Shown here one piece after another: positions 6,137 through 36,077 of a stretch of DNA of 64,000 bases. Positions within the stretch are counted from its first letter, which is position 1, and each line of letters opens with the position of its first letter. Where the stretch lies: the sequence record LC647030.1, one strand, 5' to 3'. Under the pieces are notes generated by a model. It saw nothing but the letters and a program-made list of their open reading frames with translations, was not told the origin of the DNA and ran no database searches. The position numbers and the translations under genes were made by a program. The DNA comes from Staphylococcus phage vB_SsapH-Golestan-100.

Positions 6137-7183
6137 ATGAAAACAAAAAAGCTATCAGAGATACTCTCTAGGCTTATAGATAAGACAATGATTTCTACAG
6201 GTAAAATAAATGATTTTACTCCAGGAAGTGTCATACGTTCTCTATATGAAGCTATAGCATTAGAGATAGAACAGTTCTACATGCTCACTAGACAAAACAT
6301 ACTATGGGGTATACAAGAAGGTGTATTACAGGCTTTTGACTTTAAGAAGAGAAAAGCTAAGAGAGCTTATGGTCAAGTGACTATAGAGTTTTATAATCCT
6401 TTGAAAGAGAGACTTACAATCTCTAGAGGTACAACATTCACATCTAGTAAGCAAGAAATTACACAACAGTTTGAAACATTAACTGAATATTATGTTGAAC
6501 CAGGAACAACATCGACAAGAGTAGAAGTCTATTGTACTTCTATAGGAGAAGTAGGTAATGTACCTGAAGAATCTATAAACATAATCAATACAAGCTCAAC
6601 TCTAATAAGTAGGGTGTATAATGAAACTTCATTTAGCACAGGAACAGATGAAGAGCCTATAGAAGATGTAAAAAGAAGATTTAATTTATTTGTAGAAACT
6701 AGAGGTAGAGCAACAAATAAATCAATACGTTACGGGGCAACTCAAGTCGATGAAGTAGCAGGTGTACATGTGTATGAGGAAGTAGGTCATGTTACCGTTT
6801 TTACTCATGATAGAAATGGGGAGTTAACACCTGAGTTAAAGAGTAGAGTAACACAAGCATTAGAGGATTATAGACCTAGTGGTATTATGCTTGAAGTAAA
6901 ACCTGTTATAAAAACAACACAAGACATTAATGTTACAGTAACACTATCAGATAAAAACCAAATAACAAATGACTATAAACTTCGCATTGAAAGTACTATT
7001 AGAAGCTACTTAAATAACTTTACCGTATCTAAAGATTTAATATTATCAGACTTAACACAAGTTATAATGAATATAGATGACTATATGATTTATGATTGTA
7101 GTTATAATAACATTACAGGAAATGTTATAACAAATCCTGAAGAAATATTGCGTGCAGGTAATATTAATGTTACACTAGTATAG
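6137..7183 (+). CDS. baseplate J-like protein (348 aa)
   Basis: Lies immediately after the gp25-like gene. The 348-aa size matches baseplate J of Twort-like phages. This call rests on synteny and size. Confidence 0.5.
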   Translation: MKTKKLSEILSRLIDKTMISTGKINDFTPGSVIRSLYEAIALEIEQFYMLTRQNILWGIQEGVLQAFDFKKRKAKRAYGQVTIEFYNPLKERLTISRGTTFTSSKQEITQQFETLTEYYVEPGTTSTRVEVYCTSIGEVGNVPEESINIINTSSTLISRVYNETSFSTGTDEEPIEDVKRRFNLFVETRGRATNKSIRYGATQVDEVAGVHVYEEVGHVTVFTHDRNGELTPELKSRVTQALEDYRPSGIMLEVKPVIKTTQDINVTVTLSDKNQITNDYKLRIESTIRSYLNNFTVSKDLILSDLTQVIMNIDDYMIYDCSYNNITGNVITNPEEILRAGNINVTLV

Positions 7184-7199
7184 AAAGGAGGGAATATTT

Positions 7200-10100
7200 T
7201 TGGGTAACTTTTTAAAATACATACATCCTCTACTGAAAAGAAAGAAAAGTGATAAGAATTATGAGGATGTAAACTACGCTATAATAAATGCTCTAGACAC
7301 TGAAATAAGTGATTTAGAAAAAGAGGCTATGGCAAGTAAAATACAGTCATCTCTAAAAACCGCAAAAGGAGAGTATTTAGACCTTTGGGGTGAGTGGTTT
7401 TATGTAACAAGAAGAGACAATGAGGAAGATGACTTGTACAGAGAACGTATTATAAAGTTCTTATTATTGAAAAGAGGAACTAATAATGCTATTATCGAAG
7501 CATTAAGAGACTTTTTAAATGACTATGATTCTTACATCAATATCTATGAACCGTTTACTAATATCTTCTATACTAATAAATCTAAACTTGATGGGGAAGA
7601 CCATCTTATGGGTGACTATTACCGTTTTGCTATTATCGACATCACATTAGGTCGTAAGTTCCCTGTAGAGATTATAGACGTTATTAATGAGTTTAAACCA
7701 GCAGGAGTTAAGTTTTACTTAACCTATGACCACTCAAGAGATGTAGAAGGTGATGGTATTATAGAGATGCCACCAGCTAATGTAGACATAACTGCTAGAA
7801 CACATATCAGAACTTTAGGAGGTTACGGAGGTTATATTAGAGGTCATGTTAATTTAGGAAATTTAACTTATAAATCCATTTTTGACTATGAAGATGATAG
7901 AGAGGGTAGCAATAATATCTTTAAAACTGATAATTCCCTAATTAATAGTTTAGATGTTCTAGGAGGGGAAGCAGGAGCAGGAAGCAAGTATGCTAATACC
8001 GCTATGTTAACATCCAAAGCTTACTACCCTACACCTCAAGATACAGCACATACTTTTAGTGAAACAAGTGGCGTTACATTGCTAGACTCAGAGTTTAATA
8101 GAGGTACCAATAAAATAGATAATCTAGTAGGCTCTTTAAAAACATTAGGAGGTAACAAGGAAAGTAATATTTACATAGGTCTTGATGTCTATCGTTACTT
8201 AAATCTAAATTACCCTAGTACGGTTAAGGACTATGCAGATACTTCAGAGCTAAAAAACAAAATTACGAAGGTTACAAAAGACCCTAAGATAGTTTTTAAA
8301 GCTAATGCTTTAGTGTCACCTTCAGAACCTGTATCAGCCCATATGTATATATTTAACTTTACTAACAACCAATGGGATTTTTTAGATACAGTAAATCTTG
8401 ACTTGAATGGTGTTCATAAGACCGCAGAGCTAGGTAACTTATATGACAACATATCAGATACTGGAACTGTATTCTTGAAGGGTGTGGTAGATGCTACTGA
8501 AGAGCAGATACAGATAAATGTAGACTATCTAGACCTATCATTTAAAGATTATGTAAAAGATTACTATACTATAATGCCTTATGAAGGTTCAGTAGTAGGC
8601 TACCATAATCTTATAAACCTAGCTGTAGAAGTTAACGCTTATAAGACGTATACAGGCTCTAACCCTGAAGTTATGTTAGATTCTTATTACAGACCCACGG
8701 GATTTTATAGGATTAAAGGTTTAGGCTCTACTAGAATATCTCATGTGTTGAAAGATGAAGATTATAATATGGGTATAGAATCTGAAGAGAATAGCTATCA
8801 CTATTTACCTACAGGGCTTCTTAGTAAAGAATATCTTAAACCCTTTACTATTACAGATGACAAAACTTATTTAACTTTAGATAATAATTTCAACTTTGCT
8901 GAATACTATACACTTAGCTTTATGCTAGACAATAGTGCGGACATTAACACTAGTGAGTATAAATTGCACTTTTATCAAGAAAGAAAGTCAACAAATACTC
9001 AAGAGCTTGTAGCTACTTTTAACTTATCCGATAGCTCTAAAAGCTCAGAAGAGGTGTTTAGTCAAACTAAGCAATTCCTTAAGTTCCCGTACAAAGAAGC
9101 TATTGGTGACGATGACATTAACTTTTATGTTAAAGCTGAATCTACTGGTCAGAATGCACAAGAACCTTTACAGGTTAAAGCATTTGTGTTAAAAAATTCT
9201 AGTATAGTTAAGGATGTTCCCTCAGATGCTAGCTCTATTTCTTATGGAGGTCAGAGTAACCTAAGAGATTACACAATAGAGGATACAGAAAATGGTGTGT
9301 ACTTAAAATCACCTACTGATGGGATTTTTGACTTTGCCTTAAGTTTCCCTGATGCTCCTAAGACGGACAAGGAGAAACCCTATTATTACAATGAACTTAT
9401 TGAAAAAGGACTTACACCATCGCTTTTAATTCCTTATAAAGTTACTGATGGTACTAAAGGCAGTGGAATGGTTAGAGCGTATATCAGAGACACTAAAACA
9501 AGTGCTATTATTTCTAGCTTTTATATAAGCAACAATAAAGATTCAAATTCTCCTTATGATTATATAACTATACCATTATCTAAGCTAAATTCTTCTAGTA
9601 GTCTTTACATATCTACGAGTAGCATCACTGGCATTAAGATTATAGGAAACATGAAAATAGCATTTTACACAGAAGACAATGCACTAACTTTATCATCAGG
9701 AATGTCTTACTTGCCTATAGTATCTAAAGAGTATATTGTTAAAGGTGAGATGACAGTTAAGTTTAAAATGAATAAGAAATATAGTTTACAAGAACTTCAA
9801 TTGTATTATGGTACAAGAAACACTCAAGGTATGGAAAATGTACCTTATTCATTAGAAAATGTCCAACAAGTTACTTCTACGGTTGTAGATGATACTACAA
9901 ATGAGTATTTATTTACGGTCAAAGTACCTACAGCACGCAGGGGTTATAACATAGAAGATGTTTATTCATTGTTAACTGACATGTCTAAACTCGAAGTAGA
10001 ATCCAAAGATGATACAACAGAAGTTTTTAATGATTACGATGACACGTATACAATAATTAATTATAGTAACCCTATAGACGTAACTATACCTATATATAAT

Positions 10101-17922: not shown

Positions 17923-19292
17923 TACAATTTTCACCATTAACAAAAGACAATAATGTAAAAGACCTTTCAGAAACAGTTAATAGTATTGGAGCTGAGCTAA
18001 CTAAGAGTAATAACATATTTACTCAAGTTGATTCTATGTCCAAGACTTTGCAAAATGTTCAACAATTTACATTAACTAATAAGGATGGCTATTCTAAAGT
18101 ACCAGGTTCTTTGAAAAGTATCAGAGAATTGAGAGAGGCAGGTTATTACTATATATCTGCTTCTACTCTTGCTACTTTATCAGATGCCCCACCCGTTAAC
18201 TCTGATGTTGTAATTACTGTAATGCCTTCTTCAACAAAAGATTATTGCATACAGTACTTACATACGCTAAGAGCATCTATTAATCCTAGGGCATTGTTTA
18301 GATACGCTACTCCTTCAATGTCTACAGAGTGGTTATCCGTAGTTACAACACCGTTAACTATGAATACTACCATAAGTGATAAAGACTTAAACAAAGACGT
18401 TATAGATGTTGGAACTTATTACTTTTATAACCTTAAAGGCGTCCCAACAGGTATAACACGAGGGTTTTTAGATGTAAGGAAAGGGCAAAATGACTTAACT
18501 ATATATGAGATTACTAATGCTTCTACAGCTTTGAAATATACATCAATATTTTCACCTGACACAGGACTTTCTAGTTGGGTAGAGGAGACTACATTAGATA
18601 ATATAAATGACTATACTTTAGCAGGTAAGGAAGATAACTATACGTACCCTAGATTTGGACTATATATTTATAAATCAGATAACATATCCTTTGGGGATGC
18701 TGTACAGAAGAAGTTAAAAGAAACTAACCAAGGGTCTTTCACTTTCTATTGCCAAGGAGGAGTACCCGATGCTCCTAGCCAGTATTCAACACGAGGGTTA
18801 TTCATTTCTGATACACCTAAAGACTCAGGCTCTGCAACTAATCATGGTGTATACTACGCTATTGAGACTAGTGGTAAGTTGGTAACAGGAGCTTTGGCTA
18901 GTGATAAATGGTCTACGCCAAAGAAAGCTCCCTCTATAGATACCTTATGGACAGGTAATAAGTTATTTACAGATACAAGTAAGACTGAAAAGTTATCAGC
19001 ACCTATTACAGACTATGATTATGTAGAGATTTTTATTAAGCCTAGAGTAACAACTAACTCCTCAGGAGACGTATGGGACGTAGTAAACAATGAAGGTCGT
19101 AGGTTCTATATAGGTAATGATACCTTCTTTATCGTTTCAGGAACGATTGTAGACTCTAAAGCTAAGACTATAGGTGTTGACCATTATAGAGTGGACATCA
19201 GATTCGATGGAGATACTTTTAAAGTAGATGGTTCTGCTACTATAAACAAAAAAGCACATTATGTAACTAGAATCGTTGGTCATAGAGTTTAG
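17916..19292 (+). CDS. tail fibre protein (458 aa)
   Basis: Last gene of the structural run. Size matches the 458-aa tail fibre of Kayvirus-like phages (from recollection). Confidence 0.5.
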   Translation: MVIQFSPLTKDNNVKDLSETVNSIGAELTKSNNIFTQVDSMSKTLQNVQQFTLTNKDGYSKVPGSLKSIRELREAGYYYISASTLATLSDAPPVNSDVVITVMPSSTKDYCIQYLHTLRASINPRALFRYATPSMSTEWLSVVTTPLTMNTTISDKDLNKDVIDVGTYYFYNLKGVPTGITRGFLDVRKGQNDLTIYEITNASTALKYTSIFSPDTGLSSWVEETTLDNINDYTLAGKEDNYTYPRFGLYIYKSDNISFGDAVQKKLKETNQGSFTFYCQGGVPDAPSQYSTRGLFISDTPKDSGSATNHGVYYAIETSGKLVTGALASDKWSTPKKAPSIDTLWTGNKLFTDTSKTEKLSAPITDYDYVEIFIKPRVTTNSSGDVWDVVNNEGRRFYIGNDTFFIVSGTIVDSKAKTIGVDHYRVDIRFDGDTFKVDGSATINKKAHYVTRIVGHRV

Positions 19293-19295
19293 ACT

Positions 19296-19976
19296 TTAAG
19301 TACAGGATATTTCCTGTGCTTTTTTTTTCTCATACCTTCCAAAGTTGAATAGTCGATTTTCATCATCCTTATCTAATTGTTTTAATCCTGCGTCTAACTT
19401 CTGGTGTGCTTGTGCAATTTCTTTTTGGGATATTTTATTGATGTTGGTAACGCCTAACCAACGCATTGTTTTTTCTAACGTGGCATCTCTACCTTTTTCT
19501 TGAGAGATAGTTACAAATTGATTAATCTTTTCTTCAAGCTCAGTTACGTCATTATCATTGGCACTTGGTAATTCTTCACCGTTATAGATGTACAACCCTA
19601 GTCCATGTAACGCTGCCGCTTTAACGAAGCATCTTTTCTGTGCTTTGTTGATGTCGAATGTAGTTGCGCTACCTTTAGCTAATGATTTATTTCTAAAATC
19701 TAGTACAGGCAACCATTCGGTTTCAGTTTGTCCTTTAACCGTTACTGATACTTGAACAAAATAACCTTCTGGTGCAGCTAAATATGGAACGAAATAATCA
19801 TCTCTTTCAACATCTGGATGTGGAAACTCATGTGTTTTAATAGTGAAATTTGGGTCAATCTTCTTTAATTCTTGGTGTGCATATGACCATGCAAGATAAG
19901 TAAGTCCATTCTTTTTCTCTACATGATCGTTTACATTTTTGGAATTAAGTTGATTAAATAGTGTTTGTTCAGTCAT
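19296..19976 (-). CDS. Rad52/Sak-like single-strand annealing protein
   Basis: Segments GLTYLAWSYAHQEL and KRCFVKAAALHGLGLYIY resemble conserved Rad52/Sak blocks. The RBS AAGAGGTGG precedes the ATG at 19976. The track's start at 19997 is a TTG. Confidence 0.45.
   Translation of the reverse strand: MTEQTLFNQLNSKNVNDHVEKKNGLTYLAWSYAHQELKKIDPNFTIKTHEFPHPDVERDDYFVPYLAAPEGYFVQVSVTVKGQTETEWLPVLDFRNKSLAKGSATTFDINKAQKRCFVKAAALHGLGLYIYNGEELPSANDNDVTELEEKINQFVTISQEKGRDATLEKTMRWLGVTNINKISQKEIAQAHQKLDAGLKQLDKDDENRLFNFGRYEKKKAQEISCT
19300..19329. terminator. terminator hairpin gtacagga/tcctgtgc followed by a T9 run
   Basis: Read directly from the sequence. The 3' end of the minus-strand gene 19296-19976 is encoded through this hairpin. 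Confidence 0.6.
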
Positions 19977-20196
19977 AATCCACCTCTTCATATTCAACTG
20001 TTTCAGTCAGTGTTTTTTTAATTGCTGTGTGCTTTGTCATATCTATACTAGTGTTATCTAGTCCGTTAAAATCTTTTGCATCTCTTTTGTTAGTTGAGTA
20101 TTTAACGTCAGGAAACGATTCTGAAGGTCTGTTCATAATGTAGAGATCATCGTAATCGTCTTTACGTTTAATTAGATACGTGACTGTCTGTTTCAT
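19969..20196 (-). CDS. hypothetical small protein
   Basis: ORF inside the reversed cassette. The start codon is uncertain and the RBS is weak. Confidence 0.3.
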   Translation of the reverse strand: MKQTVTYLIKRKDDYDDLYIMNRPSESFPDVKYSTNKRDAKDFNGLDNTSIDMTKHTAIKKTLTETVEYEEVDYD

Positions 20197-20446
20197 CGCT
20201 AACCAACCTTTCACCAGCCAAAACTTCTTTAATAGCTTCGAATGACTGTTTAGCATCTTCTAGTTCATGCCAGTCATATATGTGTATTGAGCCATAGCCT
20301 TTTTCGTAGTAGTCGCTGAAATGTGTAAATGCGATACCTAGTGTTCCTTCATCAAATTGCTTGAATATAACATGTGCTTCTATGTCTGAATAGGCGAGCT
20401 TGATGTTTAAGTCGTAGGACATGTTGAGTAAACGGTGTTTATTCAT
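20168..20446 (-). CDS. hypothetical protein (93 aa)
   Basis: Strong RBS AAGGAGGTG lies 7 nt before the ATG at 20446. Confidence 0.45.
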   Translation of the reverse strand: MNKHRLLNMSYDLNIKLAYSDIEAHVIFKQFDEGTLGIAFTHFSDYYEKGYGSIHIYDWHELEDAKQSFEAIKEVLAGERLVSDETDSHVSN

Positions 20447-20570
20447 AAGTTTCCACCTCCTTATATTTCGATTTGTGATGGGTACACATAAAGTGCGTAT
20501 CTCATGTGGTACTATCAAAGATAGTAACCTTATATTGTGAGGTGGTAGTTAGCCACCTCGTGTGGTATAA

Positions 20571-21296
20571 TTAAATAAATAACAACATTGTATCTAATTT
20601 GTTTTTGTTATGTTTTCTCTTGTTATAAATCTCTGCCAGTGCTAGTGGTAGGGATTCTTTTTTCGTTTTAAATCCCACTTGTTTTTTAGTTGCTTCTTGG
20701 ATAAAGCCTTCATAACCAATTTCTTTCAAACGATTAATCAAATGTGACACATCTATTTTATTTCCGTAAGTAGCAATGAATTGTGCAAATCCTTTTATTA
20801 TAAACGCTTGGTAAAATCTTCTTTCTAGTCCAAATGATGATTTAATTACTTGTAGAACTATTTCTAAAAATTCTTTACCATATTTTTTATGAACGCTTTG
20901 CAATGAAGCATACGCAGTAATGTAACCTTCTTTTGTTCCCTTTTTATCGTAGTCAATACTTAAACCAACATTCTGAACAGCTTCTTCAATTTCAATTGCG
21001 TTTTGATCTCCAAACTTTAGTGATGATTTACCTTTTGAATTTGGCGATTTAGCAGGTCTGTCGTTAATGCCATAGTACATTTCAGCTTCTTCTTCCACCG
21101 TTAATCCTTCATGAACAGTAGAGTCTATAGTCGGTATACCTAATTCTTTTAGAGCTTCAACTCTATGTTGTCCATCTATTACGAAAAATTGTCCATTTTC
21201 CCTTTTGTTAACTACTATTGTGTGTAACTTTTGTGGGTCGAAGTTTTTAACTATTTTTTTAACTTGCGAATCCTTTACTGGCGACTGATAACTCAT
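20571..21296 (-). CDS. ParB/Srx-fold (ParB N-terminal-like nuclease domain) protein with a DGQHR motif
   Basis: Segment KKIVKNFDPQKLHTIVVNKRENGQFFVIDGQHRVEAL matches the ParB N-terminal/DGQHR signature. Confidence 0.6.
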   Translation of the reverse strand: MSYQSPVKDSQVKKIVKNFDPQKLHTIVVNKRENGQFFVIDGQHRVEALKELGIPTIDSTVHEGLTVEEEAEMYYGINDRPAKSPNSKGKSSLKFGDQNAIEIEEAVQNVGLSIDYDKKGTKEGYITAYASLQSVHKKYGKEFLEIVLQVIKSSFGLERRFYQAFIIKGFAQFIATYGNKIDVSHLINRLKEIGYEGFIQEATKKQVGFKTKKESLPLALAEIYNKRKHNKNKLDTMLLFI

Positions 21297-21348
21297 ATCT
21301 GTTTTTAAACTCGTTAACCTTCATTGTTCTCACTCTTGTTTTTTTTTG

Positions 21349-21377
21349 TTGCAAAATAAGTGAAAGTGTGGTATACT
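21349..21377 (+). promoter_or_regulatory. promoter TTGCAA-17-TGgTATACT for the helicase gene
   Basis: Read directly from the sequence. The helicase begins with a GTG at 21409, preceded by the RBS ataggagga. Confidence 0.5.
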
Positions 21378-21408
21378 AGTAAAAGACCATAGAATAGGAG
21401 GATTTATA

Positions 21409-23967
21409 GTGAAGATTATTGTAGACATTATAGACAGCAAGATAGAGTTTGAACCTGAAGATGAGCATTTAAAACCCGCTATTATCAACAGAGCACATAC
21501 TGATTTAGGTGCTAGAGACCCGAACTTTTTGCATGACAGAAGGTATAAGTTAGGTATATGGGATGGGATGATAGACTTTTACGATGCAAAAAACCATTCA
21601 TTCCCTACAGGCCTTCTAGAAAAAGTTATGATTATGCTAGGGGACATGCAGTCGCAGTATGGATTTACATATTCTGTAGAGGACTTCAGACCTGATACGT
21701 TTTTAGATGTTGATGAGATGGATGAGGAAATAGTTTTAAAGGATGAAGATTTAGGCTCCATAACACTTAGAGACTATCAGCATGATGCAGTAAAAGGTAT
21801 TATAGAACACATGAATGGTATTGTTAACCTAAGTACTAATGCAGGTAAATGTATCAATAAGAATACAAGAATACTTACAGCGCAAGGTTATAAAACACTA
21901 GAGGACATCTTTACAGAGCAAGGTATAAGTTTAGATGGTGATGAGGAAGTTATACCATTACAGTATACGCTCATTAATCGTTATGGAAAGAGAGAACAAA
22001 CAAGTCATTTTACAAAGAATGGTATTAAGCCTACTAAAGTGATAACTACACATAGAGGAACAACATTGAATACAACTTACAACCATCCCTTATTAGTAGA
22101 TAGAGAGGGTACACCTGAGTGGGTTAAAGCAGAGGACTTAAAAGCAGGAGACAAGCTATATGCTAGAGCTGGTGATAACATATTTGGCACAGATAAAACA
22201 GTTAGGTCTGAGAGTGAAGCTTATAGAAGAGGTGCTATACAATCTGCAACAAAACCTCTACCAAAGTATATTCATCAAGCACCAAGAAAGATACAATTAG
22301 CATTTCTTACTGGGTTTTTAAATCTTAGAGAAGGTATTGACTTACTAAAAACATTACATACCTATAATGAACGTATTGTAATAGAAAGTCCATGTAAAGA
22401 GCTATTAGAGGACTTACAGCTAGTTCTATCTAACCTAGGTATTCTATCTTCCCTAAAGGATACAGAAAAATCTTCTTTTACATATTACGGTTTATTGGAT
22501 GTATATGAAGGGCAAGAAGAGTTGAATATAGAAACGCAAACCTATTTACAAGAAGTTGTTTCTATAGAAGAGGGAGAAGAGATTCCTACATTTGATGTTA
22601 GTATGCCTGAGACAAACTCATTCATAGGACAGGGGATTATAAACCATAATACAGAAGTAGCTAGTGGAATCATTCAGCAGTTACTCCCTCAGTTAGAAAG
22701 AGGAGAGCGTATTGCTTTCTTCACTAATAACTCATCTATCTTTTACCAGTCAGCTAAACGTATAGGAGATAGATTAGGTATTAAAGTAGGATTATATGGT
22801 GGAGGTAAAAAAGACATACAACAAGTTACATGCGTAATGTTACCTACGATACATGCTGGGTTGACAGACCCTGAAAAAAATGTTAAACTAACTGAGAAAG
22901 AAAGATTATTTAAACGTATAGCTAAAGAGGTACTACCTCAGTTTGAATCAGGAGTAAACCAACGTTATCTACTGAAGCTATTTATTGACCGTTTTGAACC
23001 TAAGACCAAAGTTGACTTAAAGTTTAAGCATGAGCTTGAAGAGGTCTTACATAGAAGTGGTTCTGATAGTGAAGTATTGATGAACTTAACAAAGTATGCT
23101 AAGCTATATAGAGAAACAATACAGAAGAAAAATAATAAAGTATATAAGAAGAATAAAGAAGTGGTAGACTTCTTAGAGAGTGTTTCTGTTATGATTTGTG
23201 ATGAAGCACACCATACGTCAGCAGATACTTGGTACTACTCACTCAGACGATGCATCAATGCTCAATACAGAGTAGCCCTAACAGGTTCAATAGAAGAGAG
23301 CAATGAACTACTCGTAATGAGGCTGAAATCAGTATTTGGAGAGATAGTAGCTAAAGTAAGAAACAAACAAATGATTGAAAGAGGATTTTCTGCTAAACCT
23401 ATCATAAAAGTTTTTCCTGTAACTCAACCTAAAGACATATCAGGATTAAAAGAGTTCCAAGAAATATACAGGAAAGGTATAGTTGAGAATGAGTATAGAA
23501 ACCTGTTGATGGCTAAACTAACTAAAACATTAAACACACAAGGTAAAACAACACTATTGATAGTAAACCATACAAAACATGGAGAGGCATTAGTAGAGTT
23601 ATTAGAGCAACTAGAGATAGACCATAGATTCATTCATGGTCAATTATCTACAGAGTATAGAGAAGAGTCATTACAATTAGTGAGAGATGGGAAACTAGAT
23701 GTTCTCATAGCCACATCTATTGTAGATGAAGGTGTAGACATCTCAGCTATTGACGCTTTAATACTTTGTGCAGGAGGTAAATCTTTACGACAAACCCTTC
23801 AGCGTATAGGTAGAACATTAAGAAAGAAAAAAGGTGACAATACCTGCCAAGTATTTGATTTCACCGATTACACACATGACATTTTACTTTCACACTCTAA
23901 GAAGAGAAGAAAAATATATGTAGAAGAAGAGTTTGAGATAGTTGACATACAGCCAAAAGCAAAATAA
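21409..23967 (+). CDS. SF2 DNA helicase (DEAH-box) interrupted by an intein
   Basis: Walker A reads STNAGK|T. Motif II is MICDEAHH and motif VI is QRIGRTLRK. The host protein is about 585 aa once the intein is removed. Confidence 0.7.
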   Translation: MKIIVDIIDSKIEFEPEDEHLKPAIINRAHTDLGARDPNFLHDRRYKLGIWDGMIDFYDAKNHSFPTGLLEKVMIMLGDMQSQYGFTYSVEDFRPDTFLDVDEMDEEIVLKDEDLGSITLRDYQHDAVKGIIEHMNGIVNLSTNAGKCINKNTRILTAQGYKTLEDIFTEQGISLDGDEEVIPLQYTLINRYGKREQTSHFTKNGIKPTKVITTHRGTTLNTTYNHPLLVDREGTPEWVKAEDLKAGDKLYARAGDNIFGTDKTVRSESEAYRRGAIQSATKPLPKYIHQAPRKIQLAFLTGFLNLREGIDLLKTLHTYNERIVIESPCKELLEDLQLVLSNLGILSSLKDTEKSSFTYYGLLDVYEGQEELNIETQTYLQEVVSIEEGEEIPTFDVSMPETNSFIGQGIINHNTEVASGIIQQLLPQLERGERIAFFTNNSSIFYQSAKRIGDRLGIKVGLYGGGKKDIQQVTCVMLPTIHAGLTDPEKNVKLTEKERLFKRIAKEVLPQFESGVNQRYLLKLFIDRFEPKTKVDLKFKHELEEVLHRSGSDSEVLMNLTKYAKLYRETIQKKNNKVYKKNKEVVDFLESVSVMICDEAHHTSADTWYYSLRRCINAQYRVALTGSIEESNELLVMRLKSVFGEIVAKVRNKQMIERGFSAKPIIKVFPVTQPKDISGLKEFQEIYRKGIVENEYRNLLMAKLTKTLNTQGKTTLLIVNHTKHGEALVELLEQLEIDHRFIHGQLSTEYREESLQLVRDGKLDVLIATSIVDEGVDISAIDALILCAGGKSLRQTLQRIGRTLRKKKGDNTCQVFDFTDYTHDILLSHSKKRRKIYVEEEFEIVDIQPKAK
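21850..22650 (+). mobile_element. intein (267 aa) inserted in the helicase P-loop between GK and T
   Basis: Begins CINKN (Cys1) and has block B TTH...NHPLL. It ends IINHN, and the +1 extein residue is Thr. A degenerate LAGLIDADG-like segment LAFLTGFLNLREG is present. Confidence 0.6.
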
Positions 23968-23992
23968 GAGTAATAAAAGGAGAGGAGAGCAT

Positions 23993-25636
23993 ATGCAACA
24001 GCTTAGAGAAGAAGGTAATCAAGTAGCATTAACTAAGTCTACTGAACATTTTTTAGACTTTCTAAAAGACCAAGTTAATGAAGATGGAACATATGCTATA
24101 GGTACTAGGAAACAGCTAGAAGAATCCTATGGCAAGTCCCGTTCTGTTATTGACCGTAAGTTAAAAGAACTAACAGAAAAAGAAATTATTACTTGTGTTA
24201 CAAAAAGAGGTAAGAATGGTGGTACTATCATTACTTTAAACTACTACAAACCTAGTGATTTTAATGCTTGGGTTAAGAAAGATGATAGTGTTATTACTTC
24301 TAATGAAAAGTATGCAAGAGATTTACGGAAAAAGGTATTTCCTAAATATAAAAGACCTTTAGGCCAAGGAAGACCTAGACGTACTAAAGAAGAAATGAGA
24401 GCTTATAAGCTAGCTAGAACTGAATTTGAAAAGTTAATGGTAACAATGAATCAGAGTACAAGTAACTTATACCCTTCTAAAGAAGTTTTTAATATGGCTC
24501 CTGACCCTGAAGGTTATTATAAAGCATACACTATGGCTAGACTGTATGATGTTATGTGTTATGAATACATGAAGCAAGCATGGATAGACCATAAGAATAT
24601 CAAGAATCCTACAGAAAAAGAAAAAAGTGCTGTAGACTTCTACTACACTAAGATGTTATACTATAGAAACAGTAACATATTAGGTAAAGACTTCTTTGGT
24701 ACTAAACTATTTAATACCTTCTATAATGCTTATCATAAACTAAAAGAGAGTAAGTTAATGATGAGTATAGAAGAGTACATGCATTCAGTATTCAAAAACT
24801 ATGTTACTCACTTTGAGTATTATAGAGGAACAAAGTATGGCTTAAAGAGTCCCGTACCTTACCCTAACTACTTACACAGTGAGACAGCATTCAAGAATTT
24901 CTACCAGCATAGAGACTATTTAAGAAAGAACAAATGTAACTTCGATAGTTACTTACCTATAGGTAACTATGTTAGTATAATAGGTATAGCAAACCCAGTA
25001 TACAAGGCTATATCACGACTATTCAATTCCGACTTCAACAACAAAGAAGAGTATAATATCATCGAGGATAAATTTAATGTAGTTATGAAGACACGAGGTT
25101 TATATAGCCCTATTACAGATTCCTTGTATACGTCTGATGAGCTATCGGAAGAGCCTGAGTTACAAGATACACTGAGCTACTTCAAGAAATATAGAGATAC
25201 AATTGATGAGGTCAAATCAGTTATAGAGGATGAGAAGGAGTATAAACTGATAGACCTATTCTTAAAACAACTATACATGATAAAAGTAGACCCTATGAAG
25301 TTAACTATATTTGATAGAATGACTATGTACCCTGTACAGCAACGTTACTACTTTGAAATGCTAGATTTCTCAGGAAGACTTAGAAAGGATAGAGAAGAGT
25401 CTTACGCTTGTATAGGAGCTGTAGGACAGCCTATAAAACAAGAACAGTTTGAGGATTTTGCTAGAGCAGGAGAAGAGTACTCTAATATCGCTAATGGAGG
25501 AGCTATGTACCAAATTATTAATATGTATATGGGTTACAATAGCACTGCCTTAAATGTACATGAAGTACATAATGTAATAAATAAATATAAATTAAATCAC
25601 ATTATAAAGCTTGACAAAAATGGTTTATTAGTATAA
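23993..25636 (+). CDS. putative replication (Rep-like) protein
   Basis: RBS aaaggagaggag precedes the ATG at 23993. It lies between two helicase genes. The call rests on size and position only. Confidence 0.4.
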   Translation: MQQLREEGNQVALTKSTEHFLDFLKDQVNEDGTYAIGTRKQLEESYGKSRSVIDRKLKELTEKEIITCVTKRGKNGGTIITLNYYKPSDFNAWVKKDDSVITSNEKYARDLRKKVFPKYKRPLGQGRPRRTKEEMRAYKLARTEFEKLMVTMNQSTSNLYPSKEVFNMAPDPEGYYKAYTMARLYDVMCYEYMKQAWIDHKNIKNPTEKEKSAVDFYYTKMLYYRNSNILGKDFFGTKLFNTFYNAYHKLKESKLMMSIEEYMHSVFKNYVTHFEYYRGTKYGLKSPVPYPNYLHSETAFKNFYQHRDYLRKNKCNFDSYLPIGNYVSIIGIANPVYKAISRLFNSDFNNKEEYNIIEDKFNVVMKTRGLYSPITDSLYTSDELSEEPELQDTLSYFKKYRDTIDEVKSVIEDEKEYKLIDLFLKQLYMIKVDPMKLTIFDRMTMYPVQQRYYFEMLDFSGRLRKDREESYACIGAVGQPIKQEQFEDFARAGEEYSNIANGGAMYQIINMYMGYNSTALNVHEVHNVINKYKLNHIIKLDKNGLLV

Positions 25637-27119: not shown

Positions 27120-28145
27120 ATGAAATTTATATTTTTTACAGACAGTCATTTTCACTTATTCACAGACTTTAGTAAACCTGACGAGTTTTATCGCAACGAC
27201 AGGTTTAAAGAACAAATGGAAGCCTTAAACTCTGTCTTTGAGATAGCAAGGGAAAAGGAAGCTACAATTATCTTTGGAGGAGACTTATTCCATAAACGTA
27301 ACGCTGTAGACACAGTAGTCTACAATGAAGTATTTAAAGTATTTGCTAGAAATAAAGATGTAGCTGTCTTATTACTCAGAGGTAATCATGATGCTACTAC
27401 CAATTCAGTATATACTGATTCAAGTATAGATACGTTTGAATACTTACCTAATGTAAGTGTATTTCAATCTTTTGGAACTATAGAGAAGGATAATGTAAAT
27501 ATAGTCTTTACAGCTTATGGTGATGAGACTGAAGAGATTAAAGAATACATCAAGGAGAATAATAAACTAGGTAAAGTAAACATTCTTGTAGGCCACTTAG
27601 GTGTAGAAGGGTCTTTAACAGGCAAGGGTTCTCATAGATTAGAAGGGGCGTTTGGGTACCAAGACCTATTACCTGATAAGTATGATTTTATTCTTTTAGG
27701 GCATTATCATAGAAGACAGTATTTCCAAAACCCAAATCACTTTTATGGTGGCTCTTTAATGCAACAATCATTCTCAGATGAGCAAGAAGCTAATGGTGTT
27801 CACTTAATAGATACTGATACTATTACAACAGAATTTATACCTCTAGATACACGTAGGTTTATTACAGTAAGAGGGGATGATGTCCCTGAAGACCTAGACC
27901 AACTTATAGAGTATGGTCACTTCATTAGATTTGTAGGTAGTACTAACCAAGCTAAAGCGATAGAGTTAGCATCTACAGATGAGACTAATAACATACGAGT
28001 AGAGTTACAGAAAGATTATACAGTAGAAAAACGTATAGATAGTGAAGTCACTGATTCACCGTTATCTATAGCATCAAGCTACTCAGATAAGTACTATCCT
28101 GAAGCTAAGAAAGAAATATTAGAATGTCTACAGGAGGTTTTATAG
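27120..28145 (+). CDS. sbcD: SbcD/Mre11-like recombination exonuclease
   Basis: Calcineurin-like phosphoesterase motifs DSHFH, GGDLFH and RGNHD. Confidence 0.75.
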   Translation: MKFIFFTDSHFHLFTDFSKPDEFYRNDRFKEQMEALNSVFEIAREKEATIIFGGDLFHKRNAVDTVVYNEVFKVFARNKDVAVLLLRGNHDATTNSVYTDSSIDTFEYLPNVSVFQSFGTIEKDNVNIVFTAYGDETEEIKEYIKENNKLGKVNILVGHLGVEGSLTGKGSHRLEGAFGYQDLLPDKYDFILLGHYHRRQYFQNPNHFYGGSLMQQSFSDEQEANGVHLIDTDTITTEFIPLDTRRFITVRGDDVPEDLDQLIEYGHFIRFVGSTNQAKAIELASTDETNNIRVELQKDYTVEKRIDSEVTDSPLSIASSYSDKYYPEAKKEILECLQEVL

Positions 28146-33962: not shown

Positions 33963-36077
33963 ATGGTAAAAGCTATTGGAGATTGGATAGATTTAAACAA
34001 TGAAATAATGCAAGTTGATGACAAAGGTAAAAACAAATTGTATAAAGATAAGGAAGCTTTACAGTCTTATCAGAATTATGTTAAAGAGAATACGTTGCAA
34101 TTTGACAATGAAGTAGAGAGAGTTAGGTACTTAACTAAAGAAGGCTTATATGATTCTTTCTTTGATTCTGTACCCGATACTATCATTAAGGAATTAACAG
34201 AGTTTGCTTATAGCTTCAATTTTGAGTTCCAAAGTTTTATGGCTTGTCAAAAGTTTTATGAGGGTTATGTTGTATTAAAACATAATAAAGATAAGTCTTT
34301 TAATTTTGTAGAGAACTATGAACAACACAATGTGCGTGTAGCGTTATATATGTTCCAAGATGACTACGCAAAAGCTAGAGCTTTTGTAGAAGAGCTTATG
34401 ACTCAAAGAGTACAACCAGCAACACCTACTTATACTAATGCAGGTAAAGGAAACAGAGGAGAGTTAAGTTCTTGTTACTTATTTAATGTAGATGATACTT
34501 TAGATTCTATGAACTTTGTTGAAAACAACACTAAGAATGCTAGTAGAGTAGGTGGAGGAGTTGCTATAGACTTCACTCGTATTAGACCTGCTGGAGCTAC
34601 AGTAATGGGTAATCCTGGAGCTAGTAAAGGTGTAGTTCCTTATGCTAAAGAGATTGAGCAAGGATTAAGTCGTATAGACCAAGGTGGTAACAGACCAGGA
34701 GCTGGGGCAGGGTATTTAAACATCTTCCATATGGACATCTTCAACTTTTTAGATGCTAAGAAGATAAATGCTTCAGAATCTTTACGTCTATCTACATTGT
34801 CTATAGGTGTTATTATACCTGACAAATTTATGGAACTTGTTAAATCAGGTGAAGACTTCTACACATTCGACACTTACGACATCTTCTTAGAATATGGTAA
34901 GTACATGGATGAGGTTGACTTTAACACAGAATATGATAAACTAGTATCTAATGAGAATATTAGAAAGGAAAAGCACTCAGCAGAAGACTTAGTAACTAAC
35001 ATTGCTAAAACACAGCTAGAGTCAGGCTATCCTTATGTATTTTTCATTGATACAGCTAATGAGAATCACCCTCTAAAACAGTTAGGTAGAGTTAAGATGA
35101 GTAATCTATGTACAGAAATCAGCCAACTACAAGAAATCTCAATCATTAAACCTTACTCATTGCATGATGATACTATCAAGAGAGATGTAGTGTGTACATT
35201 AGCTTCACTAAACTTAGTGAATGTTGTAGAGTCAGGAAAGCTACCATCAGCTGTAGACTTAGGTATGCGTTCTTTATCTAATGTAACTGCTATGATGGAC
35301 TTACCACAATTACCTTCTGTACAAAAGGCTAATGATGAATTAAGAGCTGTAGGTATTGGGGCAATGAACTTGCACGGATTACTAGCTAAGAATAGCGTAA
35401 GTTATGGCTCACGTAATGCTTTAGACATCGTTAATAGCCTATTCAGTGCAATTAACTATTATTCAATTAAAGCATCTATGGAATTAGCTAAAGAGACAGG
35501 TGAAAAATTCCTAGGCTTTGAGCAATCAGAGTATGCTAATGGAGAGTACTTTACTAAGTATAAAGCTAAATCATTCTTACCTATCACTAAAAAAGGTCAG
35601 AAAGTATTATCTAAGACTTATATTCCATCACAATCTGACTGGGAACAATTAGAGAAAGATGTTAAAGAGTTTGGATTATACAATGCTTATAGAGAAGCTA
35701 TCGCACCTACACAATCTATCTCTTACGTACAAAACTCTACAAGCTCTATTATGCCTGTACCTACAGCTATAGAGAAAAGAAAGTACTCAGACAGTGAGAC
35801 ATACTACCCTATGCCTTACTTAGATGAGAAAACACATTACTTTTATGAGTTTGAGTCAGCATATAGACTTGACAACAAAAAAATTATTAATACAAGTGCT
35901 GTAATACAACAGCATATAGACCAAGCAATTTCTACAATTCTATATTTACCTACAACAATACCTACAAATGAAGTAGTAAGCCTATTCTATTATGCATGGG
36001 AGAAAGGTTTAAAATCTATTTATTACGTACGTTCAGGTAAAGAGAGTGCGATTGAGTGTGAGTCTTGTTCAGTGTAA
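33963..36077 (+). CDS. nrdE: ribonucleotide reductase class Ib large subunit
   Basis: Catalytic motif SNLCTEI and C-terminal ECESCS, in a 704-aa protein. Confidence 0.85.
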   Translation: MVKAIGDWIDLNNEIMQVDDKGKNKLYKDKEALQSYQNYVKENTLQFDNEVERVRYLTKEGLYDSFFDSVPDTIIKELTEFAYSFNFEFQSFMACQKFYEGYVVLKHNKDKSFNFVENYEQHNVRVALYMFQDDYAKARAFVEELMTQRVQPATPTYTNAGKGNRGELSSCYLFNVDDTLDSMNFVENNTKNASRVGGGVAIDFTRIRPAGATVMGNPGASKGVVPYAKEIEQGLSRIDQGGNRPGAGAGYLNIFHMDIFNFLDAKKINASESLRLSTLSIGVIIPDKFMELVKSGEDFYTFDTYDIFLEYGKYMDEVDFNTEYDKLVSNENIRKEKHSAEDLVTNIAKTQLESGYPYVFFIDTANENHPLKQLGRVKMSNLCTEISQLQEISIIKPYSLHDDTIKRDVVCTLASLNLVNVVESGKLPSAVDLGMRSLSNVTAMMDLPQLPSVQKANDELRAVGIGAMNLHGLLAKNSVSYGSRNALDIVNSLFSAINYYSIKASMELAKETGEKFLGFEQSEYANGEYFTKYKAKSFLPITKKGQKVLSKTYIPSQSDWEQLEKDVKEFGLYNAYREAIAPTQSISYVQNSTSSIMPVPTAIEKRKYSDSETYYPMPYLDEKTHYFYEFESAYRLDNKKIINTSAVIQQHIDQAISTILYLPTTIPTNEVVSLFYYAWEKGLKSIYYVRSGKESAIECESCSV

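Follow-up and report, generated by a model that had tools for sequence, protein, structure and literature searches.

The interrupted helicase gene

The stretch of 64,000 nucleotides from Staphylococcus phage vB_SsapH-Golestan-100 analyzed here (sequence record LC647030.1; hereafter the window) contains a long continuous open reading frame (ORF) of 852 amino acids with a GTG start (21409–23967 in the ORF list), which encodes the precursor of a UvsW-like superfamily 2 (SF2) DNA helicase interrupted at its ATP-binding P-loop. The interruption, 267 residues long (21850–22650; precursor residues 148–414), is in our judgment and with high confidence a class 1 intein of the HINT fold, lying in frame between the Walker A Lys and Thr, beginning with Cys1 and ending with His266-Asn267; hidden Markov models (HMMs), an AlphaFold2 (AF2) model and Foldseek comparisons all bear on its identity. 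All features of this gene lie on the plus strand. Its junctions read, by translation, IVNLSTNAGK/CINKNTRILT at the start and FIGQGIINHN/TEVASGIIQQ at the end, and the first-pass annotation of this DNA, which was made from the letters alone, had been exact in placing a 267-residue insert with the termini CINKN and IINHN at 21850–22650, followed by Thr and splitting the STNAGK/T P-loop between GK and T.

The N-extein (residues 1–147; 21409–21849) ends in STNAGK, the first part of Walker A (21832–21849), and the C-extein (residues 415–852 and the stop codon; 22651–23967) opens with the Thr+1 codon (22651–22653) that completes the motif as GK-T. When the insert is left out, 585 residues can be counted, in agreement with the helicase of about 585 residues expected earlier, and motif I, motif II (DEAH, 23200–23211) and motif VI (QRIGRTLR, 23800–23823) are all located and intact. 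Together with profile matches to Helicase_C (6.9e-19) and ResIII (9.9e-9) and with orthology to proteins annotated as 'DNA helicase' in Herelleviridae, these motifs place the protein among SF2 helicases; in PHROGs it matches phrog_16, 'DNA helicase', at 4e-116, and a match to UvsW_N is weak (E 0.0084, below the cut-off). On these sequence features, we take the host protein to be a UvsW-like SF2 helicase of a Herelleviridae-like Staphylococcus phage.

Most genes of this kind carry no insertion. The spliced helicase sequence retrieved 770 phage records, from Staphylococcus, Bacillus, Enterococcus, Listeria and Lactobacillus phages, most of them matching in one uninterrupted piece of about 1.7 kb. 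In MAFFT alignments that included the intein-free genes of Alsa_1, AG20, EF24C, ISP and SEP1 (580–590 residues) and of PMS2, as well as the intein-bearing genes of Twillingate, Quidividi, Twort, S25-4, JDF86, PSU6, LMTA-148 and BSP15, the intein-free proteins have GGK/TE contiguous (TNGGK/TE in the first five), show a clean gap over the whole insert, and align across the junction at up to 57–63% identity. Beyond the clade of S. capitis phages discussed below, the nearest relatives of the extein are in Mammaliicoccus phages, in which the C-extein region is 63% identical and the protein is intein-free (584 residues in PMS2). The intein-bearing relatives, PSU6 excepted, carry 418–432 residues at the identical GK/T point. 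Alignment with intein-free homologs, which had been suggested as a check on the excision boundaries, thus confirmed that these are clean, and the opposing idea, that homologous helicases share the same residues as a conserved structural domain, fails because intein-free orthologs are the majority. A group I intron or other RNA element was also ruled out, as Rfam gave no match in the whole window and the ORF is continuous.

Intein models from both Pfam and TIGR, the search for splicing blocks that the first-pass annotation had recommended, scored above their cut-offs on the insert: 53.0 bits for Intein_splicing (PF14890; gathering threshold 35.8), 29.5 for the N-terminal model TIGR01445 (cut-off 24.5) and 16.3 for the C-terminal model TIGR01443 (cut-off 15.6). 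These scores over threshold, the predicted HINT fold and the presence of every catalytic splicing residue bear out the identification as an intein. The N-terminal splicing (HINT) region (intein residues 1–112; 21850–22185), defined by TIGR01445 over residues 1–83 and by beta strands over residues 1–106, contains block A (CINKNTRILT, 21850–21879) and block B (GTTLNTTYNHPLL, 22057–22095). Block B had been recognized earlier as TTH...NHPLL; the block is indeed present, but the TTH (intein residues 66–68) lies outside the TxxH motif, which is T76-Y-N-H79. The C-terminal splicing region (intein residues 227–267; 22528–22650), matched by TIGR01443, contains blocks F and G (PTFDVSMPETNSFIGQGIINHN, 22585–22650), with D249, H266 and N267.

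The conservation of these residues was judged against a family recovered by an exhaustive HMMER search of 1.84 billion representative sequences, which gave 1496 matches at E≤1e-3; together with profile searches, it replaced a single-sequence, word-indexed protein search that had returned only three fragmentary matches. With the N- and C-splicing HMMs, 151 inteins were delimited from the best 150 proteins plus earlier matches, and Cys1, T76, H79, D249, H266, N267 and Thr+1 of the window intein are the consensus of these 151. T76 is shared by 130 and H79 by 147 of them, D249 and H266 by all 151, N267 by 149, and the +1 residue is Thr in 125.

From the standard chemistry of class 1 inteins, the 852-residue precursor would be translated with a split P-loop, unable to bind ATP and inactive. 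An N-S acyl shift at Cys1 would be followed by attack of Thr+1 on the thioester (transesterification), by cyclization of Asn267 with the help of His266 and Asp249, and by an O-N shift; the joined exteins, with GK-T restored, would form an active helicase of 585 residues and release a free intein of 267. That the insert is instead a dead intein, kept in the mature helicase as a non-splicing domain, we consider extremely unlikely. Nothing specific speaks for it apart from the fact that splicing is here a prediction from sequence, and it would leave the Walker A Lys and Thr separated by the insertion despite conservation of the residues for all four splicing steps. It also sits poorly with selection on the extein. 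The helicase gene is 95.8% identical in nucleotides to the 'DNA helicase' coding sequence (CDS) of the S. capitis phages S2G3 (PV037055) and Fi4S2 (PV037056), and between the window and Fi4S2 it differs at 106 of 2556 aligned sites with no indels; by the Nei-Gojobori method this single pairwise comparison, for which S2G3 offers no second point since S2G3 and Fi4S2 are identical in the helicase gene, gives a dN/dS of 0.018 for the extein. Such very strong purifying selection implies a working ATPase.

Reduction and constraint of the endonuclease domain

The first-pass annotation had also described a degenerate LAGLIDADG-like segment and a reduced endonuclease, and comparison with the inteins of 418–432 residues accounts for this by two internal deletions and the substitution of both catalytic acids. 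What is left of the endonuclease, according to alignment and the AF2 model, is a motif-1 helix, a motif-2 helix and one half-domain. The remnant of the LAGLIDADG motif-1 helix, EAYRRGAIQS (intein residues 123–132; 22216–22245), was located by alignment with full-length relatives and coincides with an AF2 helix at residues 121–130; where relatives have AYVLGCMIADS the window intein has AYRRGAIQSAT, which replaces the catalytic Asp with Ala. Half-domain 2 is kept (intein residues 136–222; 22255–22515), as indicated by alignments, AF2, Foldseek and a match to LAGLIDADG_3 (PF14528) at intein residues 174–213, which scores 22.6–24.0 bits against a cut-off of 22.5 and covers only positions 22–64 of the 82 in the profile. 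It includes the motif-2 helix (IQLAFLTGFLNLREG, 22291–22335), in which the ECE of relatives is NLR, so that FLSGYLECESS has become FLTGFLNLREG with the catalytic Glu replaced by Arg, and the alpha2 helix (CKELLEDLQLVLSNLGI, 22393–22443).

The deletions are placed by positions in P0024, a Twillingate-type intein that is the nearest full-length relative at 50% identity. The first, of about 70 residues (P0024 positions 135–204), falls at 22251/22252, between intein residues 134 and 135, and spans from the motif-1 helix to the KKVPKCILKSPKDIQLSFLSGY stretch leading into motif 2, that is, the alpha/beta core of half-domain 1; the HMM for half-domain 1 finds no match in this intein. The second, of about 80 residues (P0024 positions 281–360), falls at 22491/22492, after intein residue 214, and removes the C-terminal helical accessory region, which in other endonuclease-bearing inteins helps DNA recognition (PMC8966425). 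Of the two features that define an active two-motif LAGLIDADG enzyme, neither is present: both catalytic positions of the paired helices are substituted, and in place of two pseudo-symmetric half-domains there is one. Such an enzyme is excluded, and homing activity, as far as the sequence can tell, has almost certainly been lost. The element is equally not a mini-intein, since its 267 residues include a folded insert of about 115 residues between blocks B and F. Non-canonical endonucleases, encoded antisense or out of frame, have been described for some actinophage inteins (bioRxiv 10.1101/2025.01.02.630785); a gene of this type inside the window intein was ruled out, the other five frames being open for at most 52 residues.

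The AF2 model, built on an alignment only 19 rows deep, has a mean predicted local distance difference test (pLDDT) of 89.4 and a predicted TM-score (pTM) of 0.87, and shows a HINT domain with a single alpha/beta LAGLIDADG half-domain. Beta strands of the HINT horseshoe are predicted at residues 1–106 and 231–267, and between these parts lie helices at 121–130 and 146–156, followed by an alpha/beta unit (strand 176–180, helix 183–195, strands 199–206 and 212–219). Compared by Foldseek with the PDB, this predicted structure falls within the HINT fold, with E-values to solved inteins from 1e-13 to 1e-5, whereas a PDB search by sequence alone gave only marginal matches (E about 1e-3). TliVMA (7qsu) ranks first (E 1e-13, TMq 0.72), followed by PhoVMA (7qst), PI-PfuI, PI-TkoII and PI-SceI; mini-inteins rank after the endonuclease-bearing inteins, with TMt of 0.7–0.86, and TMq is 0.64–0.72 to endonuclease-bearing inteins versus 0.4–0.49 to mini-inteins.

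The remnant is constrained and is not freely decaying. In the comparison with Fi4S2, dN/dS is 0.048 for the whole intein, 0.041 for the N-splicing region and 0 for the C-splicing region; the endonuclease remnant (intein residues 113–226), with 16 synonymous and 5 non-synonymous changes, has a dN/dS of 0.081, a strong departure from neutrality (binomial p=4e-7), and its constraint is only slightly weaker than that on the extein (Fisher p=0.05). The earlier description of a partially decayed homing intein therefore holds for the architecture of the element but not for the surviving piece, which is folded and under purifying selection. The remnant is probably kept as a folded support for the HINT domain, on which the splicing of an essential helicase depends, a reason suggested by analogy: in MjaTFIIB, as PMC6801210 summarizes (citing Iwai 2017), correct HINT geometry and efficient splicing can depend on a degenerate endonuclease domain.

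A confidently folded half-domain under purifying selection might also be read as a sign of continued mobility, with two copies of the single half-domain pairing, in the manner of I-CreI, into a homodimeric endonuclease active on helicase alleles that lack the intein. A glutamate (E160) adjoins the substituted catalytic position in motif 2, and other truncated members of the family, P0014 (YLDCEAH) and P0104 (GLCWGDG), retain acidic motif-2 residues. We nevertheless regard continued mobility as very unlikely. Both canonical catalytic positions of the window intein are non-acidic (A and R), the accessory domain for DNA recognition is deleted, and the literature searched yielded no intein with a single-motif endonuclease. 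Its distribution likewise agrees better with vertical descent than with spread: the collections searched show the window intein only in three closely related phages and in one metagenomic representative cluster at 98% identity. S2G3 and Fi4S2 carry at the same site an intein of 267 residues with both deletions, 97.4% identical in amino acids (seven differences), so that all three known members of this group are occupied. The records of the two S. capitis phages label the gene 'DNA helicase' and have no intein feature, and nothing on Fi4S2 and S2G3 was found in the literature searched.

Because of the two deletions and the replacement of both catalytic acids, the intein is most likely immobile and vertically inherited. 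Its ancestor would have been a homing intein of about 420 residues with a two-motif LAGLIDADG endonuclease, spread by homing, a form that persists at the same site in the helicases of Twort and of Sepunavirus, Kayvirus, Listeria and Bacillus phages. Fixation in this phage lineage, in which no close empty allele is known, would have been followed by the two internal deletions and the loss of both acids, and with them of endonuclease activity; selection would now maintain splicing together with a foldable remnant.

Several points weigh against this reading. Splicing itself is predicted from sequence, and E160, one residue past the substituted motif-2 position, could still allow residual metal binding. 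The shallow alignment behind the fold prediction and the single comparison behind the selection estimate count in the same direction. In addition, position 13 of the F block is Asn in place of the commoner His, which might slow Asn cyclization; Asn at this position as the mark of a dead intein was rejected because it is found in 20 of the 151 family members (His in 114). The sequence and model data directly show an insertion in frame with defined ends, conserved catalytic residues, the HINT fold, both deletions and both substitutions, and the signal of selection; that the intein splices, that its nuclease is dead, and why the remnant is constrained are inferred.

Related inteins and recurrent truncation

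Related phages have elements of this well-known kind at the identical site, some of them already annotated as inteins. The helicase inteins of Twort (ORF006), S25-3/S25-4 and Twillingate/Quidividi occupy the same host protein at the same point (TNxGK/C...HN/TE), and share blocks A, B, F and G with the window intein; homology to it, at 44–51% identity, extends through the two splicing regions as well as half-domain 2. In GenBank the Twillingate and Quidividi gene is annotated as 'intein-containing DNA helicase precursor', the intein itself being entered as a mat_peptide, that of S25-3 and S25-4 as 'putative helicase with intein' and that of PSU6 as 'helicase with intein', and a Hint domain has been cited for the Twort helicase (PMC5526547). 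These Twort-like inteins are 418–420 residues long and have two LAGLIDADG half-domains, in which the acids are intact (IADS and LECE), plus some 90 residues of accessory domain at the C-terminus; in the window intein the accessory domain and the half-domain 1 core are missing, and A and R occupy the catalytic positions. At the other extreme, mini-inteins at the same helicase P-loop site (such as P0017, P0020 and P0021; 155–183 residues) have a homologous HINT domain and no endonuclease remnant; the window intein stands between these and the full-length form. Degenerate homing endonucleases also occur in the PhoVMA (PDB 7qst) and MjaTFIIB inteins, which likewise combine HINT with a nested LAGLIDADG domain minus its catalytic aspartates; their host proteins and lineages differ from those of the window intein, and in PhoVMA both half-domains are present, shortened by a single turn, whereas the window intein has lost the core of a whole half-domain. 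Endonuclease degeneration after fixation (PMC8966425, PMC1654191) and mutualism between HINT and endonuclease domains (PMC6801210) have both been described, and both apply to the window intein. The boundary between Walker A Lys and Thr is a 'classic' insertion site for P-loop inteins (PMC5050341; PMC4760082), those of RecA/RadA, DnaB-b, MCM-a, RFC and TerL1-a lying between the Lys and the nucleophilic Thr/Ser of other host proteins (PMC5050341, PMC4760082); RecA and TerL members of the same sequence family as the window intein were recovered here.

Within that family, 129 of the 151 inteins are preceded by GK and 148 are followed by Thr or Ser. Their flanks point to hosts that include UvsW-type helicases and RecA as well as proteins that look like large terminases. 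By size there are 7 mini-inteins (155–183 residues) and about 27 intermediates (238–342 residues), the rest measuring 358–535 residues with a mode near 420–430. No intein shorter than 345 residues matches the half-domain 1 HMM, and at least 14 of them match that for half-domain 2. The GK/T-site members in RecA and terminase-like proteins (P0005–P0016, P0041, P0047, P0093, P0134 and P0163, among others) include full-length, truncated and mini versions, and no further intein of the family was found elsewhere in the window.

Truncation appears to have occurred many times. Most intermediates have as their nearest relative, by splicing domain, a full-length intein of the same host family, and a neighbor-joining tree of 138 P-loop inteins scored by Fitch parsimony, rough in that it rests on about 150 columns and has no bootstrap, gives about 22 independent size reductions. 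A single truncated clade that moved between RecA and helicase genes was ruled out, because the window splicing domain has its nearest relatives among full-length helicase inteins (P0024, 57%; the RecA form P0014, 48%). Each time, the first deletion has almost identical limits, from just past the motif-1 helix to just before the 'K-x-I/V-P..I...IQ.AFL.GY' stretch: pairwise alignments place it at 133–204 in a RecA intein, at 127–225 in terminase inteins, and at 135–204 in the helicase intein P0052 (340 residues), in which the accessory domain is still there. The half kept in truncated forms is half-domain 2.

Loss of the endonuclease as the route to mini-inteins is a textbook idea. A different possibility, which we put forward tentatively and think somewhat doubtful, is that the arrangement of HINT domain, motif-1 helix and single LAGLIDADG half-domain is a recurrent, selectively maintained end-state rather than a passing stage of decay. 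Because the first deletion recurs with nearly the same limits and half-domain 2 is always kept, the pattern suggests either that HINT folding and splicing need the two-helix bundle together with half-domain 2, as a structural mutualism, or that the remnant has some new function. No paper on recurrent deletion of half-domain 1 was found in the literature searched, the coverage of which was incomplete.

The intein might also have been co-opted as a conditional post-translational switch, making helicase activation dependent on a cue during infection such as redox state, metal ions, single-stranded DNA or temperature. This is compatible with an immobile, vertically inherited intein, yet we think it improbable here. 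The insertion in the ATP-binding loop necessarily makes the precursor inactive, purifying selection in spite of lost mobility fits a benefit to the host, and P-loop inteins of DnaB and RadA have been documented to splice conditionally (PMC6195587, PMC7360933; discussed in PMC4760082). However, the need to splice at all explains the purifying selection equally well, and most related phages function without an intein. No specific sensor feature is apparent in the window intein, the sole Cys besides Cys1 being C182 in the remnant, and there is no Cys beside the junction that could form a disulfide trap.

Taken as an immobile but splicing element, the window intein would be a clean natural intermediate between homing inteins of about 420 residues and mini-inteins of about 160 at the same site, and would illustrate the degeneration phase of the homing cycle; it leaves the current understanding of inteins unchanged. 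Selection on the remnant and the recurrence of the deletion in unrelated hosts hint that splicing has a structural need for part of the endonuclease scaffold, which, if true, bears on the origin of natural mini-inteins and on compact intein engineering. For annotation, genes of the S2G3/Fi4S2 type should be described as encoding an intein-containing precursor, with a mature helicase of 585 residues and an intein of 267.

Other interrupted helicases and neighboring loci

Related helicases are interrupted in other ways as well. In PSU6, and also in P0031 and P0042, a homologous intein lies three residues upstream (ATN/C...HN/SGKTE, with Ser at +1), a shifted P-loop site. The BSP15 helicase, like P0033, has a second intein in motif II (DE/C...HN/CHH) besides the P-loop intein. 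In the Silviavirus phages Remus, StAP1 and EW20, the match to the helicase begins only at query residue 137, and from this pattern their genes appear to be interrupted at the P-loop region by something other than the window intein. Introns have been mentioned for the Romulus/Remus helicase (PMC5526547), and this conserved helicase site may be a target of introns as well as inteins.

Upstream of the helicase gene is a candidate promoter and ribosome-binding region (21349–21401, plus strand), recognized by consensus matches only: a promoter-like TTGCAA-17-TG-n-TATACT with an extended -10 TG at 21349–21377, and an AGGAGG ribosome-binding site at 21396–21401, 7 nucleotides 5′ of the GTG. A promoter is annotated at the equivalent position in phage ISP. 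Between this promoter and a tail-fiber gene that ends at 19292 lies a module of about 2 kb (19296–21338) with four genes on the minus strand. The first (19296–19997) has its closest DNA matches in temperate phages, where they are annotated as Sak/SAK3-like single-stranded DNA-annealing proteins; the others encode a DUF2483 protein (19969–20256), a 116-residue ORF product assigned to no family (20168–20518) and a DUF6551 protein with a weak GmrSD_N/ParB-like match (20571–21296). Fi4S2 and S2G3 lack the module and have an intergenic gap of about 100 bp in its place. Its DNA is 72–79% identical to that of temperate siphoviruses of staphylococci (80alpha, phage 53, IMEP5 and vB_SepS_459), and a lytic-type myovirus appears to have acquired it in mosaic fashion.

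Two further differences from the Fi4S2 record were noted. In Fi4S2, about 1.9 kb of extra DNA with a 'transposase' CDS splits a recombination exonuclease/SbcD-like gene (positions 6352–8229 of the Fi4S2 sequence compared); this insertion is absent from the window, where the flanks are joined directly at about 27697–27701. From window position 35104 onward, collinearity with Fi4S2 stops inside the gene for the ribonucleotide reductase large subunit, past which point the Fi4S2 record has a 'homing endonuclease' CDS and then structural genes on the other strand; the break may be an intron/endonuclease polymorphism or a difference in genome arrangement. Immediately downstream of the helicase, an ORF listed at 23942–25636 (TTG start, 564 residues) overlaps the 3′ end of the helicase gene. 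Judging from Fi4S2_142 (547 residues), its true start is probably the ATG at 23993 (MQQLREEG...), and its product, which has no Pfam match, is known in relatives as 'HTH DNA binding protein / transcriptional regulator'.

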